In this document: positions 1,059 to 26,553 of the stretch, piece by piece | How positions within the stretch are numbered: position 1 is the first letter of the stretch | How the letters are laid out: every line of letters starts with the position of its first letter | From: a virus | Virus genome (UHGV): UHGV-0099905 | Strand: one strand, 5' to 3' | DNA length: 29,459 nt | Translations under genes and position numbers: made by a program | The notes under the pieces: generated by a model | What the model was told of the DNA's origin: nothing | The model's input: only the letters and a program-made list of their open reading frames with translations | Databases searched by the model: none

Positions 1059-1372
1059 AGCCGCACAAATTTTAGCCATGGCTTTTCAGGAAGTCAGGGC
1101 TATCAGAATGGCCTTAGAAAGCCTAGTCAAAGAGCTGTCACGAGAACACCGTTAGCTTAGCGTACGATTTTTTCCGAATTCTGCGGTTCCCCCTATTCCG
1201 CGTTCTGCAATCACACTCGCTCAGTGTGTCCCATTTTGGTAACGAGGCTGGAAACTGACCTCGCTGGTGTTTGACTTCTTAGGCTACTGCCAGGTATGCA
1301 TCTTCGTTTGCAGTTATATTTAACGTTCAAACAGTCGCATCTCAACGAAAACAAAGTGATCTTATACATATT

Positions 1373-1396
1373 AGATAAGTAAGTAAATACTTATCT
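1373..1396. promoter_or_regulatory. Palindromic motif copy AGATAAGTA-agtaaa-TACTTATCT
   Basis: 9-bp perfect inverted repeat with 6-bp spacer; overlaps the stop codon of the 1391-1696 gene at the end of the ligase operon. Confidence 0.5.
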
Positions 1397-1696
1397 ATCT
1401 GTAATGCGTTTAGTTGCTATTTTTTTGATCAGGCTCCCCTTTTGTTCCGGAGTTCTCGTGATGATGGCGGTAAAACGCTTCGCTTGAATAGTGATAGTTT
1501 CGTTTTCCTTGAGTTCGCCGTAATGCGTCTCTAACAGGGACCCCAGACGCCACAGACCGTCGTCTATGCGTTTATGGCTGGCGAATCTGATCAGCAGTAG
1601 CTTTACGATTAACTGACCAACGTAAAAGGCAAATCCGAAGCCGGCCGCAACAAGGTAGGTTGCCAGCCACCAGTCGAAGGAAGTCAAATTGCTCAT
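1391..1696 (-). CDS. Small membrane protein (101 aa, one N-terminal TM helix), last gene of the ligase operon
   Basis: ORF in track; hydrophobic segment WWLATYLVAAGFGFAFYVGQLIVKLLLI; its ATG overlaps the stop of the upstream 50-aa ORF (ATGA). Confidence 0.5.
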   Translation of the reverse strand: MSNLTSFDWWLATYLVAAGFGFAFYVGQLIVKLLLIRFASHKRIDDGLWRLGSLLETHYGELKENETITIQAKRFTAIITRTPEQKGSLIKKIATKRITDR

Positions 1697-1845
1697 TTTC
1701 GCACTCCCGTCTCGTGAACAACCCGATACACACGCTTACCGACACGAAGTGTTTTGGTTTTCAGTTCCTGCTGGACCAGGGCGCGGCAGATTGCGAGGCC
1801 GAGGCCCACGCCACCAGTAAAAGATAAAATGATGTATGGAATCAT
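1693..1845 (-). CDS. Unlisted 50-aa ORF, predicted single-pass membrane peptide (MIPYIILSFTGGVGLGLAICRALV...)
   Basis: Hand translation of the reverse complement of 1693-1845; ATG overlaps the stop of the upstream gene (TGATG) and its stop overlaps the downstream ATG (ATGA). Below the track size cut-off. Confidence 0.4.
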   Translation of the reverse strand: MIPYIILSFTGGVGLGLAICRALVQQELKTKTLRVGKRVYRVVHETGVRK

Positions 1846-2057
1846 CAGTGCGCCCCCGCCTCAGTCAATTGCTGCAACAACAAATAACCTTTTTCAGTCA
1901 GTTGATAGTTCTCAATACATCCCTTTGGAGAAACGTTGGCGACAAGATTCATGCGCTCCAGTTTGGCTCTGGTCTTCGGCTTCCAGTTGGCGTAGAACTC
2001 CTTCCACTTGCTAATTTCACGCAGGGTTTCCTTCTCTCGTTTACTTAACATGATCAT
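1845..2057 (-). CDS. Small soluble protein (70 aa), possible winged-helix-like DNA binder
   Basis: ORF in track; basic, with the segment YQLTEKGYLLLQQL reminiscent of wHTH wings; start lies inside the 3' end of the upstream 59-aa ORF. Confidence 0.4.
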   Translation of the reverse strand: MIMLSKREKETLREISKWKEFYANWKPKTRAKLERMNLVANVSPKGCIENYQLTEKGYLLLQQLTEAGAH

Positions 2058-2220
2058 CCTTAATCTCCTTCAGTGTGTCCGTGATATCTACTATGCGATA
2101 AATACGACCTCGCCTTTGCATGACACCGGCTTTTACGTAATCGTGGATACAGCTGGACATAACCAGACTTCCGATAACAATGCCGACGACTAAAAATACA
2201 AACATCCAGCCGAGCATCAT
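2041..2220 (-). CDS. Unlisted 59-aa ORF, predicted single-pass membrane peptide (MMLGWMFVFLVVGIVIGSLVM...)
   Basis: Hand translation; ATG overlaps the ligase stop codon (ATGA-type coupling); N-terminal hydrophobic helix. Confidence 0.4.
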   Translation of the reverse strand: MMLGWMFVFLVVGIVIGSLVMSSCIHDYVKAGVMQRRGRIYRIVDITDTLKEIKDDHVK

Positions 2221-3539
2221 TCTTTATCTCCAATACGATCTTCGGTATCTCGAAGACATTTAGGCCACTTCAGACGTGGATGACGCAAGCTACCATCTGG
2301 CGTTTTCTCATGGCAGTGAACCTCAACGATGCGTCCACGATACTTCTCCTGATTGTTCCAGATTTCATCCAGGTATTTATGCTTGATACCGCTGGCACGA
2401 ACGATGACGCCGTTCTCCAGACGAATCACTATCTTGCCTAGCGTATGCGCAAAGCCAGAGTCCGGATCGCCAGGCTCGAAGTCGATGACTTCACCGTCTT
2501 CTGAATCCTCGTCTTTCAGCTTCCACCAGCTGCGGGTACGTTTGAACTCGTAAACTGAATCCGGATCTTTGCCCATCTCTCCCTCTTCATTCTCGTCCAG
2601 TCGCTTCATGAAACGTTCGATGAAATCTTCGTGGCTATGGATGATGTAGAACGGATGAAGGTGGATATCTTGCGCATAATCTTCCACGCAAGTGTTGCGG
2701 AACAACGCCACCAGCATAGCCAGGCGCTCTTTCAGCTTCATACCGGTCTTCAGGTACTCTTTGCTTTTTGCTTGAGCACGCCACTCCGGTAAGAAGAAAT
2801 CGAAAATGTGGTAAACGGCACCAATGGCTTTCACGTTCTTCTTACGAAGCGCCGACACTGACTGGTTGAATGTACCTGCAGTGCCCTCTCCATCGAAGAA
2901 GATGTGATTGAAGCCGGAGAGTCTGCCCCGCTCCAGCATGGCTGGTTTAAGGTGATCGAGTGACGTAATCGGATTGCCGGTGCGCGTCAGGAAATTGACC
3001 TCACCCTCGTCCACGATGACTTCGCAGATAACCCGGAGACCATCGAGTTTGAGACTGCCGATCATTGGCCACTTGGCCTTTGGATTTGGTTTAAATGGGT
3101 ATTTGTCGCCTTTCTCCTTGTACGGAGACGCCAGCTGTACCTCAAACTTCGGAATTGGGTTTTTGAACACCTTGTTGCACAGGCTGATGCCGACACCGGC
3201 TTTCGGATCTTTCAGCAGGAAGCGACGAAACACGTCCTGCCCGTCAGCGCACATCGAGGCAACGAGTGATTCGACAGCAGCAATAGCGATGTTCCCGGTC
3301 AGTTCGCGCGCTGCCAGCTTCTCCAGCAGATCTACTACCTTCTGGTCGCTGGGTACGGAAGTATCGAGTGGCTCGGCCACTTTGTACTTCTTCACACCGA
3401 ATCGAATGAATGGATTGAGCATTAGCGAGACCATGCTCTGTTCAAATTCATCCAGATTGGCCAGCGCCTCTTTCTTGGCGTTGGTTCCCATCGTTTTAAT
3501 AGCATCCAGCTTGTGCTTTAGGGCGATCAGTTTTTCCAT
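2217..3539 (-). CDS. ATP-dependent DNA ligase, phage T7 ligase-like, with N-terminal extension
   Basis: Nucleotidyltransferase motif I KLDGLR, motif V-like RSWWKLK, and C-terminal ETPDGSLRHPR closely resembling the T7 ligase C-terminus (TPDGSLRHP) as recalled. Confidence 0.85.
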   Translation of the reverse strand: MEKLIALKHKLDAIKTMGTNAKKEALANLDEFEQSMVSLMLNPFIRFGVKKYKVAEPLDTSVPSDQKVVDLLEKLAARELTGNIAIAAVESLVASMCADGQDVFRRFLLKDPKAGVGISLCNKVFKNPIPKFEVQLASPYKEKGDKYPFKPNPKAKWPMIGSLKLDGLRVICEVIVDEGEVNFLTRTGNPITSLDHLKPAMLERGRLSGFNHIFFDGEGTAGTFNQSVSALRKKNVKAIGAVYHIFDFFLPEWRAQAKSKEYLKTGMKLKERLAMLVALFRNTCVEDYAQDIHLHPFYIIHSHEDFIERFMKRLDENEEGEMGKDPDSVYEFKRTRSWWKLKDEDSEDGEVIDFEPGDPDSGFAHTLGKIVIRLENGVIVRASGIKHKYLDEIWNNQEKYRGRIVEVHCHEKTPDGSLRHPRLKWPKCLRDTEDRIGDKE

Positions 3540-3573
3540 TAGTGTTTAACCTCCATCGGTCGCTCGGGAGTTT

Positions 3574-4049
3574 TCATGTGTTTTCTTTGGTTGCTTCTTC
3601 AATGAGTGCCGCGTACACGTCAGTGATCGACGCCAGTGAATCGGTGGGCTTGGTTTCGGATTTAGCAGGTTCTGTTTTCTTCGTGCGATGAATAAGACTG
3701 TCAATTGTCGCGGAGTTTCGCTTCCGGGGGGCGTTCTGGCATGGTCGTTTTGCTCTTCCACTTCTTTGATAAGTGAAGACATATCGATGAAGTAGAGCTG
3801 TTCGCCTTTGCGGATCTCTTCGACCATCATTTTCAGTGCCTGACATTTACCAGCAGCAATAGCCGCAGCACAGGACTGGAACGATGTAGCCGGGAGACGT
3901 TTTTCTTTATAGGCGAGGATCGTGTGTTGGCAGACTGTATAGCTGCAATGAGCCTCATGGCCGTTGAGCTTCACTTCCGGGCAGCGCAGCGAATAACCGT
4001 TGTTTCCGGAGATAGACGGGATTTTCGACAAATCTGTTCTTGTGGACAT
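3574..4049 (-). pseudogene. First gene of the ligase operon, split by a frameshift at a G6/C6 homopolymer (3726-3731)
   Basis: Track ORFs 3546-4049 and 3574-3846 are the same strand in different frames; the plausible N-terminal part (frame A) and C-terminal part (frame B, ...KPTDSLASITDVYAALIEEATKENT) join at the C6 run; each frame is low-complexity junk beyond the junction. Confidence 0.5.
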
Positions 4050-4067: not shown

Positions 4068-4083
4068 GTACTTACTTATTAAT
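4068..4083. promoter_or_regulatory. Motif copy GTACTTACTTATTAAT upstream of the ligase operon
   Basis: Gene-oriented sequence AATAAGTAAGTAC lies 18-40 nt upstream of the ATG at 4049. Confidence 0.45.
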
Positions 4084-4096
4084 CGCAGTTTAAAGA

Positions 4097-4112
4097 AGCC
4101 CCACGAGGGGCT
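4097..4112 (-). terminator. GC hairpin (AGCCCC-acga-GGGGCT) followed by a U-rich tract on the minus strand, after the 4130-4942 gene
   Basis: Inverted repeat seen directly; on the minus strand it is followed by TCTTTAA. Confidence 0.4.
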
Positions 4113-4942: not shown

Positions 4943-4982
4943 AGCAACTCCTGACTAACAGATGAAAGTATTCTTTCAGAAA

Positions 4983-5004
4983 AATAAGTAAGTATCTACT
5001 TATT
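4983..5004. promoter_or_regulatory. Palindromic motif copy AATAAGTA-agtatc-TACTTATT
   Basis: 8-bp perfect inverted repeat, 6-bp spacer, 40-60 nt upstream of the ATG at 4942; a TATAAT hexamer abuts it in gene orientation. Confidence 0.55.
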
Positions 5005-5110
5005 ATATCGGGCGCAATAGTCTGCTATACGAAGAAGCCAGGCGTAAAAACCACTCGGATGCACATCCAGCACCCGACAAAGCAGTCGGACAGGCCAGCA
5101 ATGGGTGTTG

Positions 5111-5413
5111 TCACGGATAAAGGCGTACCTCAGTCGGACAGCTTTGCGAAGTACGCCGCGCTTTTTTTAATATGTCCCGTTCGTCGGTAACCCGCTTCAG
5201 CTCTTTCTGGAGACGGCGGATCTCGGCCTGAGCATCTGACTGTTCTTTATTAGTGGAAGAATCCGGACCGTACTTCTTTATCCAGGCATAAAGGCTGTGG
5301 GTGGTGATATCGAGACGTGTTGCAACGCTGGCAACAGAATAACCGCGATCAACAACCTGTTTGACTGCTTCAATTTTAAACTCTTCGGGATAACGCTTAC
5401 CGCTCATGGGCAC
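5111..5413 (-). CDS. IS3-family OrfA (transposase N-terminal HTH protein), probably truncated at the C-terminus
   Basis: Sequence pattern typical of IS3-family OrfA; ORF in track. Confidence 0.75.
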   Translation of the reverse strand: MPMSGKRYPEEFKIEAVKQVVDRGYSVASVATRLDITTHSLYAWIKKYGPDSSTNKEQSDAQAEIRRLQKELKRVTDERDILKKARRTSQSCPTEVRLYP

Positions 5414-5470
5414 CTCTCTTTAAGTCATCTTAAATGACTCTGAGGTGTCTATTAAACCTGTGGCGATTCA
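5111..5470 (-). mobile_element. IS3-family remnant: terminal inverted repeat plus orfA only; orfB deleted
   Basis: orfA-like product with HTH (MSGKRYPEEFKIEAVKQVVDRGYSVASVATRL...) and leucine-zipper-like tail; putative IR end TGAATCGCCACAGG (reverse complement of 5457-5470); no transposase orfB downstream; the C-terminus of orfA diverges after ...ILKKA. Confidence 0.65.
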
Positions 5471-5576
5471 ATACACTAAATCAATAAGTTGGTAGCATTA
5501 CCGATGAATTTGACAATTTAAACTAAAAAAATAAACTACGAAATAATTTTAATGTTATGTTTCCATAAACATGGTA

Positions 5577-6600
5577 GACTAGCCCATGAATCTCCAGACA
5601 GTTGGTTACAGCGCCTGCTGGGCAAAAAAACCATGGAAAACGAGCTGCTGAAAGAAGCCGTTGAATATGGCCGACAAAAAAAGTGGATAGCGCACGTGCC
5701 CTTGTTGCCGGAGGATGGTGAATAAGCCTTGTCAGTCGTTGCCTCCGGGTCTCACGTGCGCAACTGCATGCCATGGCCCGTCGGTCGAAGGGCTGGCAGG
5801 ATCGTCGGTGCAAGCGCAAGCCTGATGATACTGAAGCGCTGGCTCGTATCCATACCGTTATCGACGATCTGCCCACCTATGGTTATCGTCGTGTATGGGT
5901 ACTGCTGCGCAGACAATCAGAAACTGACGACATGGCGGTGATCAATGCCAAACGCGTATACCGCATCATGCGTCAGAATGCGCTGCTGCTTGAGCGTAAA
6001 CCGGCAATACCGCCCTCGAAGCGGGCGCATAGAGGGAAAGTGGCCGTTGGAGAAAGTAACCAGCGGTGGTGCTCCGACGGCTTCGAGTTCAGCTGTGATA
6101 ACGGTGAAAAACTGCGGATCACGTTCGCGCTGGACTGTTGCGATCGCGAGGCACTTCACTGGGCAGCAAGTACCGGTGGATATGACAGTGAAACCGTGCA
6201 GGACGTCATGCTGGGTGCAGTAGAGCGTCGCTTCGGTAACAGGCTGCCGACATCCCCCGTTGAGTGGCTGACAGACAACGGTTCAGCCTACCGTTCTCAT
6301 CAGACGCGTCAGTTCGCCAGAATGGTAGGACTGGAGCCAAAACATACGGCGGTACGTAGTCCAGAAAGCAACGGAATGGCGGAGAGCTTCGTGAAAACGA
6401 TGAAGCGCGACTACATCAGTATCATGCCAAAACCTGACGGGTTAACAGCGGCAAAGAACCTTGCGGAGGCCTTCGAACATTACAACGAATGGCATCCGCA
6501 CAGTGCACTGGGATATCGTTCTCCACGGGAATATCTGCGGCGGCGAACCAGTAATGGGTTAAGCGATAAAAAGTGTCTGGAAATATAGGGGCCAATCCAC
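5577..6600 (+). mobile_element. IS2-like element with internal deletion removing most of orfA (about 1.0 kb versus about 1.3 kb for intact IS2)
   Basis: Left end TAGACTAGCCCATGAATCTCCAGACA matches the IS2 left inverted repeat as recalled; it is joined directly to the last roughly 35 codons of InsC ([38 protein letters not shown]), followed by complete orfB; right end near GGGGCCAATCCA. Confidence 0.75.
5773..6588 (+). CDS. IS2 InsD-like transposase catalytic subunit (orfB)
   Basis: Very close match to IS2 InsD as recalled ([10 protein letters not shown]..., DNGS.YRS, rve integrase-core motifs). Confidence 0.85.
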
Positions 6601-15854: not shown

Positions 15855-15866
15855 ATGATTCCCTTT

Positions 15867-15890
15867 AATAGGTATGTACTTACTTATCTA
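15867..15890. promoter_or_regulatory. Motif copy AATAGGTATGTACTTACTTATCTA
   Basis: Near-identical to the copy at 24921-24944 (21 of 22 aligned positions); directly upstream of the replication operon. Confidence 0.55.
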
Positions 15891-24920: not shown

Positions 24921-24944
24921 AATAGGTATATACTTACTTATTAT
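24921..24944. promoter_or_regulatory. Motif copy AATAGGTATATACTTACTTATTAT
   Basis: Near-identical to the 15867-15890 copy; 45-70 nt upstream of the tail-fibre ATG. Confidence 0.55.
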
Positions 24945-26535: not shown

Positions 26536-26553
26536 TATAAGTACTTACTTACC
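26536..26553. promoter_or_regulatory. Motif copy TATAAGTACTTACTTACC (contains palindrome TAAGTACTTA) in the divergent intergenic region
   Basis: Lies 3 nt from the ATG of the minus-strand gene and about 45 nt upstream of the plus-strand helicase ATG. Confidence 0.5.

Follow-up and report, generated by a model that had tools for sequence, protein, structure and literature searches.

We describe a replication operon in which an ATP-dependent DNA ligase gene is followed by four small genes, three of them predicted to encode single-pass inner-membrane proteins. Patterns of substitution across diverged relatives indicate that all four are real genes under purifying selection. Their products are very probably accessory proteins of the lytic phase rather than a resident defence or toxin module. 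We tentatively, and only weakly, favour the reading that the membrane proteins tether replication to the membrane; the specific tethering mechanism is itself doubtful.

Organization of the operon

The DNA analysed here (hereafter referred to as the window) is a stretch of 29,459 nucleotides from the virus genome UHGV-0099905. Sequence comparison identifies it as an SSU5/pHCM2/pMT1-type phage-plasmid of E. coli, with 100% identity to pLAO59 and 92% to phage SSU5. The operon lies on the minus strand, between helicase/primase genes and the polymerase gene, and is thus part of the replication module. Its genes run in the order 158/167-aa gene, ATP-dependent ligase, g59 (58 aa in its probable form, see below), g70, g50 and g101 (Table 1). 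This synteny is conserved in pHCM2, in pMT1 and in plasmids of Klebsiella, Cronobacter and Enterobacter, and 768 plasmid records, pHCM2 (S. Typhi) and pMT1 (Y. pestis) among them, match a 3.1-kb query across the operon. Phages commonly interleave unrelated small genes, and being placed in a replication operon says little about function.

Table 1 Features of the operon and its borders (positions in the window)
Feature	Position	Strand	Evidence or remark
167-aa ORF, first operon gene	3546-4049	-	ORF call
ATP-dependent DNA ligase, 440 aa	2217-3539	-	PF01068, phrog_114
g59, small bitopic inner-membrane protein (predicted)	2041-2220	-	phrog_4381, E 2e-39
g70, soluble basic winged-helix-like protein, 70 aa	1845-2057	-	phrog_4054, AF2/Foldseek
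g50, small bitopic inner-membrane protein (predicted), 50 aa	1693-1845	-	phrog_6302, E 6e-33
g101, bitopic membrane protein (predicted), 101 aa, last operon gene	1391-1696	-	phrog_4507, E 2e-59
Perfect 9-6-9 palindrome AGATAAGTAAGTAAATACTTATCT	1373-1396	.	overlaps g101 stop codon, 1391-1393
Upstream operon boundary	4069-4112	.	motif copy and terminator-like hairpin
Conserved non-coding stretch 3′ of the operon	1191-1372	-	start of ~750-nt conserved region

The initial annotation had described the small membrane genes as unusual. They are in fact long-annotated hypotheticals: all four small genes are listed, in unchanged order behind the ligase, as SSU5_045-048 in SSU5 and as STY_RS26055, RS25030, RS25580 and RS25025 in pHCM2, and each has a full-length PHROG match (phrog_4381, phrog_4054, phrog_6302 and phrog_4507; E about 1e-33 to 1e-59) labelled ‘unknown function’. 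Two of them, g59 and g50, are indeed absent from the ORF track of the window, as had been pointed out, most likely because of a <60-aa length threshold; their absence does not extend to the SSU5 and pHCM2 records. The g50 gene is also frequently left out of PGAP annotation, and the 58-aa gene is lacking in the record of the related phage-plasmid Cyrano. Among the small non-lysis proteins of SSU5, 6 of 38 have a transmembrane (TM) segment, one of them encoded immediately behind the recombinase.

The first gene of the operon, the 167-aa ORF, belongs to the 158-aa SSU5_043 family (phrog_5055) as a frameshifted allele. A 1-nt deletion in a run of C residues sets it apart from SSU5 and pHCM2, its phrog_5055 match spans residues 1-106 only, and pLAO59 and E. 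coli D4 plasmid A have the same allele. The ligase matches PF01068 (46.2 bits, cut-off 26.2) and phrog_114 (E 2e-124), and its translation contains a KLDG adenylation motif (KxDG motif I), as expected of an ATP-dependent DNA ligase. Identity to the SSU5 ligase is 97.5%; with T4-type ligases it is ~27% across the whole protein. An earlier assignment to the T7 type does not hold, as full-length alignment is obtained with T4 gp30-type enzymes, whereas T3/T7-type enzymes cover only residues 159-439.

The proposal that the operon ends at a motif copy overlapping the last stop codon was borne out (Table 1). AGATAAGTAAGTAAATACTTATCT belongs to a family of intergenic motifs spread over the genome: the window holds six copies of TACTTACTTAT at ≤1 mismatch, compared with 0.39 expected, and SSU5 holds 19 motif copies in 100 kb, compared with 1.45 expected. 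At the upstream boundary, the 167-aa gene begins 20 nt after another motif copy (4069-4079), and the preceding 270-aa gene is followed by a terminator-like G+C hairpin (4097-4112). Promoter-like sites occur at chance level (4 found, 4.5 expected). The conserved region 3′ of the operon runs to tRNA-Asn in relatives; in the window it is interrupted at 1191 by inserted cargo.

Gene junctions and start codons

Chaining of the small genes by ATGA or TGATG stop-start overlaps, as first noted, is present at three junctions but not at the g59/g70 junction, which is a 17-nt overlap of neither type. The ligase and g59 overlap by 4 nt (ATGA) or, if g59 begins at its second ATG, by 1 nt (TGATG). The g70/g50 junction is a 1-nt TGATG (ATGA in most relatives), and g50 and g101 are joined by ATGA. 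The second ATG of g59, at 2217, is likely to be its true start, giving a product of 58 aa: the first codon reads CTG or GTG in SSU5, pHCM2, pMT1, Cronobacter and one Klebsiella plasmid. A GGAG-type Shine-Dalgarno site is found 8-13 nt upstream of every start, and these sites and the overlaps (1-17 nt) are retained in 15/15 lineages compared. The gene arrangement is that of a translationally coupled operon, and such coupling is predicted here.

The small ORFs are selected genes

All four small ORFs are intact and of constant length in 12-15 diverged lineages. Median dN/dS is 0.13 for g59, 0.08 for g70, 0.17 for g50 and 0.11 for g101; the value for the ligase is 0.05. Across 12-15 diverged sequences there are no internal stops in the annotated frames, compared with 0.5-9.4 per sequence in the other five frames, and the lowest pN/pS together with freedom from stops is seen in the annotated frame only. 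By these measures the four ORFs are real genes under purifying selection, and the lack of conservation and selection that the initial annotation had named as its test is clearly not what is seen. Non-functional or mis-called ORFs, retained merely through overlap with other signals, would be in keeping with the skipping of the 50-aa ORF by PGAP in many records. However, this reading is effectively refuted by dN/dS values of 0.08-0.17, by the stop counts, and by starts, Shine-Dalgarno sites and overlaps that are kept at saturating synonymous divergence.

Gene content across lineages marks ligase→g50→g101 as the conserved core of the operon, and g59 and g70 as dispensable and missing in some lineages. 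The g59 gene is missing at 14 of 96 loci and in a distant lineage (L099) in which g50 lies directly behind the ligase. The ligase→g50→g101 arrangement is retained even where the g101 homologue is only ~30% identical, and the operon ends there at an intrinsic terminator. At six Klebsiella loci the greater part of the ligase, g59 and g70 is gone and g50 and g101 remain, indicating that this pair is independent of the ligase; in other plasmids g101 has been replaced. No occurrence of the small-gene families was found beyond the SSU5-type phage lineage.

Three predicted bitopic membrane proteins

The maximum Kyte-Doolittle value over a 19-residue window is 2.57 for g59, 1.83 for g50, 1.83 for g101 and 0.03 for g70. 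On this simple scale, a protein was taken to be bitopic if it had one segment of at least ~19 residues above 1.6 together with charge asymmetry. In g59, g50 and g101, no K or R precedes the helix and four follow within 15 residues. Hydropathy and charge distribution thus support the single N-terminal TM helix that had been assigned to these three proteins, and predict an N-out/C-in topology. The predicted periplasmic parts are 0-17 residues long (~8 in g101 if its longer helix, 9-36, is taken).

In g59 the TM helix, which carries a GxxxG motif, is followed by the tail sequence RRGRIYRIV; g50 has a GxxxG helix and the tail sequence GKRVYRVVHET, and the predicted cytoplasmic tails of both are ~30 aa long. 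G12xxxG16 is invariant in both proteins, as are A17/G19/A23/G27 in g101. Profiles of g59 and g50 align collinearly (hhalign probability 67%, E 5e-5), and column shuffling gives a z score of 7.0 for the whole and of 4.5 when only the tail is used. On this evidence g59 (58 aa) and g50 are paralogues, with a GxxxG helix and a G-R/K-R-x-Y-R-V-V tail.

In g101, the predicted N-terminal TM helix contains a small-xxx-small motif; beyond it the protein is predicted to form a long helix in the cytoplasm, then a β-hairpin and a basic tail. An AF2 model of low confidence (pLDDT 64) places the helix at 6-59 and the hairpin at 67-80. A profile search of 1.84 billion proteins returned 18 matches, mostly of the same family, and including three relatives of ~30% identity. 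The RefSeq name ‘C-type natriuretic protein’ is supported by no Pfam or NCBIfam model. The tails of the membrane proteins matched no known DNA-binding domain in Pfam or among PDB sequences.

A winged-helix model for g70

The initial description of the 70-aa protein as soluble, basic and wHTH-like agrees with its hydropathy, its pI of 9.6 and its structural model. AF2 (pLDDT 72) gives an H-β-H-β-β-H layout, and the top Foldseek matches in PDB and BFVD are almost all winged-helix proteins (MarR, PadR, RosR, TubR), with probability about 1 and TMq of 0.67-0.82 but E values of only 0.002-0.15. HTH_45 (PF14947) is found sub-threshold in 12/16 family members (best E 0.0012), and no Pfam or NCBIfam match at threshold places g70 in a curated wHTH family. 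We conclude that g70 models as a small winged helix and is a putative DNA-binding protein.

The operon is silent in a lysogen of a relative

In an overnight LB lysogen (uninduced) of Cyrano, which is 74-79% identical to this element, the homologues of the ligase and of the three small genes that are annotated there have 5.0-7.6 normalised reads with a floor of 4.99, compared with 7.1 for the terminase and 96 for the repressor (PMC9928086 S1 Table). Reads fall from 43.7 (CYRAN_34) to 8.8 (CYRAN_35) across the upstream operon boundary (PMC9928086 S1 Table). The operon homologues are transcriptionally silent in the Cyrano lysogen, at or near the floor. Elsewhere in SSU5, the holin/endolysin/spanin lysis cassette is SSU5_026-030, ~12 kb off, and the Cor exclusion gene adjoins the tail fibre genes.

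These data bear on the suggestion that the peptides are typical of superinfection-exclusion, abortive-infection or toxin modules. Given the floor expression in the lysogen and the separate lysis cassette and Cor, that suggestion is not supported. Small membrane proteins such as T4 Imm and Sp and HK97 gp15 do mediate superinfection exclusion, and an early lytic-phase role as in T4 Imm would fit the expression data. We nevertheless consider it very unlikely that the peptides stop the entry of incoming phage DNA or abort infection. There is no PADLOC match below E 0.04 and none with a defence annotation in Pfam, NCBIfam or PHROG; the predicted periplasmic N-termini comprise merely 0-17 residues; SSU5 already has an exclusion protein; and the families are confined, as far as found, to this phage lineage. 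Expression in the lysogenic (plasmid) state, which exclusion would call for, is not seen in the data from the relative Cyrano, and a resident element could not use genes that are silent in the lysogen for protection.

Membrane-depolarising toxins or auxiliary holin/antiholin-type lysis-timing peptides are, in our assessment, very unlikely. Many small TM peptides are toxic upon over-expression, and the size, single TM helix, basic C-terminus and glycine-rich helices seen here recall type I toxins and pinholins, which share these features. However, the genes are embedded in a replication operon and none was found to have a promoter of its own, and depolarising the membrane while replicating would be self-defeating. 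Matches to Hok/Gef, holin and toxin families are absent in Pfam, PHROG and NCBIfam, and the genes are neither Hok/TisB-like nor adjacent to endolysin or spanin genes, the complete lysis cassette of SSU5 being the distant one described above.

Possible roles at the membrane

With negligible periplasmic parts and short tails, the TM helix is a plausible business end of these proteins. The GxxxG helices could bind a host inner-membrane protein (divisome, transporter or FtsH) and switch it off in lytic growth. This would be the manner in which the Caulobacter proteins SidA and DidA and phage SPO1 gp56, small bitopic regulators working through their TM helix, block division. The helix motifs are the best-conserved part of otherwise fast-evolving proteins, expression in the lytic phase is suggested by lysogen silence in Cyrano, and the genes are dispensable in plasmid lineages. 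Such a host-directed function is fairly unlikely, as no homology to known inhibitors was found in Pfam, PHROG, NCBIfam or PDB and strict conservation of the cytoplasmic G-R/K-R-x-Y-R-V-V hairpin points to a role for the tail as well.

The weakly favoured reading remains that of a membrane tether for replication. The most likely role of the proteins would be that of adaptors keeping phage DNA at the membrane during replication or repair, or keeping its proteins there. They would be made together with the replication enzymes only upon induction or infection; their TM helices would pack into small membrane complexes, and their positive-inside topology would leave their tails, which are short, basic and predicted to form a β-hairpin, in the cytoplasm. 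They would act at the cytoplasmic face of the inner membrane. The soluble winged-helix protein g70 may be an optional DNA-binding partner of these adaptors. A bolder proposal, which we regard as unlikely, is that g50, g101 and the paralogue g59 form an unrecognised phage micro-membrane family coupling ligation and replication to the inner membrane through packed GxxxG helices and a basic cytoplasmic β-hairpin, with g70 as a soluble partner that binds DNA and may recognise the ATAAGTAAGTACTTACTTAT palindrome found throughout the genome. If true, pHCM2 (S. Typhi) and pMT1 (Y. pestis) would carry a Gram-negative counterpart of phi29 p16.7/p1.

The operon is an ordinary accessory module and reveals no new defence system or mechanism. 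What is new is the g59/g50 paralogy, the conserved core, the floor-level expression of the operon in the Cyrano lysogen, and the location of the lysis cassette and Cor elsewhere in SSU5. SSU5-type phage-plasmids are widespread in clinical Enterobacterales and carry resistance and virulence cargo, and their lytic biology is almost unstudied. Proof that four micro-ORFs are selected genes leads to better annotation, and the core pair g50/g101 and the paralogous micro-protein family offer clear motifs for mutation and are concrete, cheap targets. A membrane tether, if true, would be a modest yet real addition to phage replication organisation in Gram-negative hosts.

Comparison with known systems

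Structural superposition matches the g70 model with minimal winged-helix proteins (MarR/PadR/HxlR cores, TubR, HTH_45; TMq as above). Unlike these proteins, g70 comprises 70 aa without a dimerisation or ligand domain, and in its model a single clear helix separates the first strand from the wing. The membrane proteins resemble T4 Imm/Sp, HK97 gp15 and Cor in being small phage-encoded proteins of the envelope (a predicted location here), but have no homology to them, essentially no predicted periplasmic domain, and homologues that are silent in the lysogen. They are also similar to SidA/DidA, SPO1 gp56 and E. coli AcrZ/MgtS-type proteins, which have 30-100 aa, a single small-xxx-small helix and a short cytoplasmic tail; homology is again lacking, and those regulators do not have the G-R/K-R-x-Y-R-V-V hairpin.

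In p16.7 of Bacillus phage phi29, DNA is bound by a defined C-terminal domain that is dimeric, and the protein serves a linear genome replicated by protein priming. The tails of the present proteins span 30-65 aa and carry a predicted β-hairpin, there is no sequence or fold relationship to p16.7 and no PDB or Pfam match, and the low-confidence g101 model shows helix, hairpin and helix in place of a C-terminal DNA-binding domain. In phi29, p16.7 and p1 are membrane proteins proposed as anchors of the phage replication machinery that recruit replication intermediates (PMC4974454). As with these two, the proteins described here are small phage proteins with a (predicted) membrane anchor, encoded alongside replication functions, and we infer a corresponding timing from operon structure and lysogen silence. 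In the model, g101 shares with p16.7 the succession of an N-terminal TM segment, a long helix and a small element at the C-terminus. The tether proposed above would be a functional analogue, not a homologue, of phi29 p16.7/p1.

Operon organization and genomic context

Four small genes, here named by codon count (g59, g70, g50 and g101), follow the DNA ligase gene, and the overlaps at the ligase–g59, g59–g70, g70–g50 and g50–g101 junctions are 4, 17, 1 and 4 nt, respectively. A GGAG-type Shine–Dalgarno sequence lies 8–13 nt 5′ of each start, and overlaps and Shine–Dalgarno sites are kept in all 15 lineages compared. The initial annotation described the gene calls, the chaining and the division into transmembrane (TM) and soluble products accurately, apart from two corrections. 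The ligase, which it called T7-type, resembles T4 gp30-type enzymes over its full length, and T3/T7-type ligases match just the C-terminal two thirds of the protein. The reported absence of two small genes from the ORF track probably reflects a mere 60-aa threshold; all four are annotated in phage SSU5 (045–048) and in pHCM2. Because codon 1 of g59 is CTG or GTG in SSU5, pHCM2, pMT1, Cronobacter and one Klebsiella plasmid, the true start is probably the second ATG, giving 58 aa and a TGATG overlap.

Features of the ligase operon and its surroundings in the window. Median pairwise dN/dS values are Nei–Gojobori estimates from codon alignments of 15 loci, with synonymous divergence often saturated in these pairs.
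Feature	Coordinates	Strand	Length (aa)	Median dN/dS
167-aa ORF	3546-4049	minus	167	
Ligase	2217-3539	minus	440	0.05
g59	2041-2220	minus	59	0.13
g70	1845-2057	minus	70	0.08
g50	1693-1845	minus	50	0.17
g101	1391-1696	minus	101	0.11
Conserved non-coding stretch	1191-1372	minus		
Terminator-like hairpin	4097-4112			
Palindromic motif copy	1373-1396			
Palindromic motif copy	4069-4079			
Palindromic motif copy	4982-5005			
Palindromic motif copy	15866-15889			
Palindromic motif copy	24931-24941			
Palindromic motif copy	26542-26552			

Over the 3.1 kb around the operon, identity is 100% with pLAO59 and NZ_AP027746, both E. coli plasmids, and 92% with Salmonella phage SSU5; the stretch matches 768 plasmid records, drawn from Klebsiella, Escherichia, Enterobacter, Salmonella, Yersinia and others, the majority typed as non-mobilizable. 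This gene order recurs in the annotations of SSU5, pHCM2 (S. Typhi CT18), pMT1 (Y. pestis; ligase interrupted by IS100), the E. coli phage-plasmid Cyrano, Klebsiella phage pJN2-26, and Cronobacter and Enterobacter plasmids. Together, the identity matches and common gene order mark the element as an SSU5-type phage-plasmid. In SSU5, the operon region lies in the replication module, 3′ of a DnaB-like helicase and primase and 5′ of tRNA-Asn and DNA polymerase.

In the window, the SSU5 backbone is broken on both flanks of the operon block (1–1190 and about 5010–6600). The left flank, short of 1191, carries the 3′ part of a gene for a PAS-domain methyl-accepting chemotaxis protein (51–1004; preceded by IS26 in pLAO59) and lacks the tRNA-Asn of relatives. 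Right of about 5010, IS3-family transposase ORFs and then fimbrial (yehD-like) genes occupy the place of SSU5_041 and the primase in SSU5. In the 167-aa ORF, a frameshifted allele of the SSU5_043 family (Cys-rich, 158 aa), one nucleotide is deleted from a homopolymeric C-run (3724–3729); the same allele is found in pLAO59 and E. coli D4 plasmid A (no CDS listed there), and the ORF represents either a pseudogene or a variant C terminus. The g59 homologue is intact yet unannotated in Cyrano (OV696614, 3343–3519), and the 50-aa gene, again with an intact ORF, does not figure in the annotation listed for pTB212, pLAO59, pMT1 and several Klebsiella plasmids. A 52-aa ORF (1211–1369, minus) was rejected as a gene, being unconserved and carrying stops in three lineages.

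Purifying selection on the small genes

Judged from sequence, the four small ORFs are real genes. Their dN/dS values lie between 0.08 and 0.17, with synonymous divergence often saturated, and in a six-frame control the annotated frame alone was stop-free and had the lowest pN/pS, the other frames holding 0.5–9.4 stops per sequence. ORF lengths are essentially constant between lineages, and each product matches one PHROG over its full length (4381, 4054, 6302 and 4507, all of 'unknown function'). The initial annotation had named missing conservation or missing purifying selection as the argument against these genes; given the low dN/dS, the stop-free frame, the constant lengths and the PHROG matches, we therefore find the reverse.

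Predicted membrane micro-proteins and a predicted winged-helix protein

The products of g59, g50 and g101 each have one N-terminal hydrophobic helix (maximum Kyte–Doolittle score over 19 residues of 2.57, 1.83 and 1.83, respectively), with no K/R before it and four K/R in the 15 residues after it, a distribution that predicts an N-out/C-in topology. g59 and g50 align without gaps over 50 columns, with invariant M1, G12, G16, K29, R38, Y40, R41 and T46, and share a GxxxG helix and a predicted cytoplasmic G-R/K-R-x-Y-R-V/I-V/I-x-x-T element. Profile–profile comparison gave a probability of 67% (E 5e-5), and, with shuffled columns as control, the z score was 7.0 overall and 4.5 when only the tail was compared. 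On these comparisons, we conclude that g59 and g50 are paralogues. A lipoprotein or signal-peptide reading of both was discarded, since S. Concord, Cronobacter and K. oxytoca do not conserve the Cys that follows the helix.

In g101, residues A17, G19, A23 and G27 of the helix are invariant, and a low-confidence AF2 model (pLDDT 64) comprises one long helix (6–59), a β-hairpin (67–80) and a short C-terminal helix. The hairpin (AKRFTAIITRT; QGKEYAVRIMRKT in distant members) was considered as a relative of the g50/g59 motif and rejected (hhalign 0.1%, 3% and 1.9%); kinship of g101 to g50 or g59 was not detectable by hhalign. RefSeq calls the g101 product a 'C-type natriuretic protein', a name that has been propagated and is backed by no model.

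The g70 product is, as initially annotated, soluble, basic and winged-helix-like: it is not hydrophobic (same hydropathy measure, 0.03), has a pI of 9.6 and is modelled by AF2 as H-β-H-β-β-H (pLDDT 72). Foldseek matches in PDB and BFVD are almost all winged-helix proteins (TMq 0.67–0.82, with weak E values), including MarR, PadR, RosR, TubR and small uncharacterised phage proteins. Pfam HTH_45 gave a sub-threshold match in 12 of 16 family members, and the annotators of Cyrano had guessed at a 'putative transcriptional regulator' for the homologue.

A conserved core with losable neighbours

Searches of Pfam, NCBIfam, PADLOC and PDB sequences gave no significant match for any of the four proteins, and PDB sequence searches with three profiles gave nothing below E 0.2. 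A word-indexed search of 5.8 billion proteins (g101, g70 and a combined g59+g50 profile) returned SSU5-type relatives only, the g101 profile run as a full HMM search against 1.84 billion representatives returned 18 proteins, most of the same family, and tblastn of a phage collection found nothing beyond SSU5-type elements; the matches of every search thus fall within SSU5-type elements of Enterobacterales. With the ligase as anchor, no comparable context was found beyond this group, the next-closest ligases being less than 32% identical and from T4-like and T7-like phages.

Three distant g101 relatives, at about 30% identity, were among the matches, one of them in a 110-kb IMG/VR contig (L099, UViG_3300013669_000001). 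In that contig, a g50 homologue of 52 aa overlaps the ligase stop and is followed directly by the g101 homologue and an intrinsic terminator; g59 and g70 are missing. An extra 134-aa gene (3115–3519) stands between a 152-aa gene and the ligase in L099, and the operon ends in a classic G+C hairpin with T-run instead of the AT-rich palindrome.

In a survey of 96 loci, a biased sample since most were found through g101, all five genes were present in 61; g59 was missing in 14, where the ligase stop overlaps the g70 start, and six Klebsiella loci lacked most of ligase, g59 and g70 and kept g50 and g101. Klebsiella plasmid pUCLAOXA232-4.X keeps ligase–g59–g70, with g50 disrupted and g101 replaced. 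These presence/absence patterns leave g50 and g101 as the conserved core, with g59 apparently a losable duplicate of g50; no small gene is required for plasmid maintenance. In at least one element, a deletion has created an in-frame fusion of roughly the first 30 ligase residues with the C-terminal half of g101 (P0219, 87 aa), a further sign of a deletion hotspot at the operon region in plasmid-state elements.

Palindromic motif and downstream non-coding region

As first described, the operon ends at a motif copy, the palindrome AGATAAGTAAGTAAATACTTATCT, that overlaps the last stop codon. Copies of the motif (ideal form ATAAGTAAGTACTTACTTAT) lie at gene boundaries, for the most part 10–60 nt 5′ of start codons. 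The window holds six copies of the 11-mer (at most one mismatch) against 0.39 expected, and the first 100 kb of SSU5 hold 19 against 1.45 expected, nearly all intergenic and in the late and replication modules; L099 has a variant form instead. Possible roles for the motif are operator, promoter element and RNA processing hairpin. g70 was considered as its binder, but Klebsiella lineages without g70 still have motif copies and no link can be claimed.

The non-coding stretch just 3′ of g101 contains long invariant blocks across lineages whose coding genes are ~70% identical, and its counterpart in relatives starts a conserved non-coding region of roughly 750 nt that reaches tRNA-Asn. Rfam gave a lone 16-bit beta_tmRNA fragment (E 0.034), and RNAalifold gave hairpins without compensatory changes. 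An ncRNA, a tRNA precursor leader and a cis-acting site are candidates for this stretch.

Expression in a lysogen and possible functions

The only relevant expression data found are the LF82/Cyrano transcriptomes (PMC9928086, S1 Table), from the lysogen grown overnight in LB and given as normalised read counts; LF82/Cyrano can be induced through the SOS response (PMC9928086). Ligase (5.9 reads) and the homologues of g70 (6.4), g50 (4.99, the floor) and g101 (7.6) compare with 7.1 for the terminase, 43.7 for the homologue of the upstream 270-aa gene and 96 for the repressor, and none of the operon genes is among the authors' morons, prophage genes expressed in the lysogen (PMC9928086). Near the floor and off the moron list, the operon behaves like a unit of the lytic cycle. 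Its upstream boundary falls, in the window, at the terminator-like hairpin and the motif copy of 4069–4079.

Of the readings initially offered, an exclusion, abortive-infection or toxin module is poorly supported as a resident function because the operon is silent in Cyrano lysogeny, no defence family matches significantly, the proteins are predicted to have practically no periplasmic domain, and SSU5 carries a separate Cor gene and a complete holin–endolysin–spanin cassette elsewhere. Exclusion during the lytic phase is improbable, and a toxin or holin-like role slightly more so. Small membrane peptides beside a replication enzyme had been called unusual, yet small TM proteins are no rarity in this genome: a TM segment is present in 9 of 41 small SSU5 proteins, namely three lysis proteins, the three studied here and three dispersed over early regions, of which one directly follows the recombinase.

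The genes have been public since pHCM2 and SSU5 were sequenced, each matching a PHROG, and are not new as records. In the literature searched we did not find stated that all four ORFs are under purifying selection, that g59 and g50 are paralogues with shared motifs, that ligase→g50→g101 is a conserved core, that g70 can be assigned by fold to winged-helix proteins, or that expression data speak against a resident defence role. In the same literature, no paper was found that joins SSU5, DNA ligase and transmembrane, and nothing on pHCM2, phage and transcriptome that touches the small genes.

This leaves a lytic-phase accessory module, which would consist of cytoplasm-facing, basic-tailed micro-membrane proteins and, optionally, a small winged-helix protein, all produced along with the replication enzymes; we infer its topology, complex formation and every functional step. 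Such an ordinary, uncharacterised phage accessory module is not surprising, and merits correct annotation and simple experiments. Modulation of a host membrane protein is an unlikely role for it. A membrane adaptor or tether for replication and repair, the other reading initially offered, is the role we favour, though with low confidence, and would be analogous to the proposed tether role of the small phi29 proteins p16.7 and p1 (PMC4974454).
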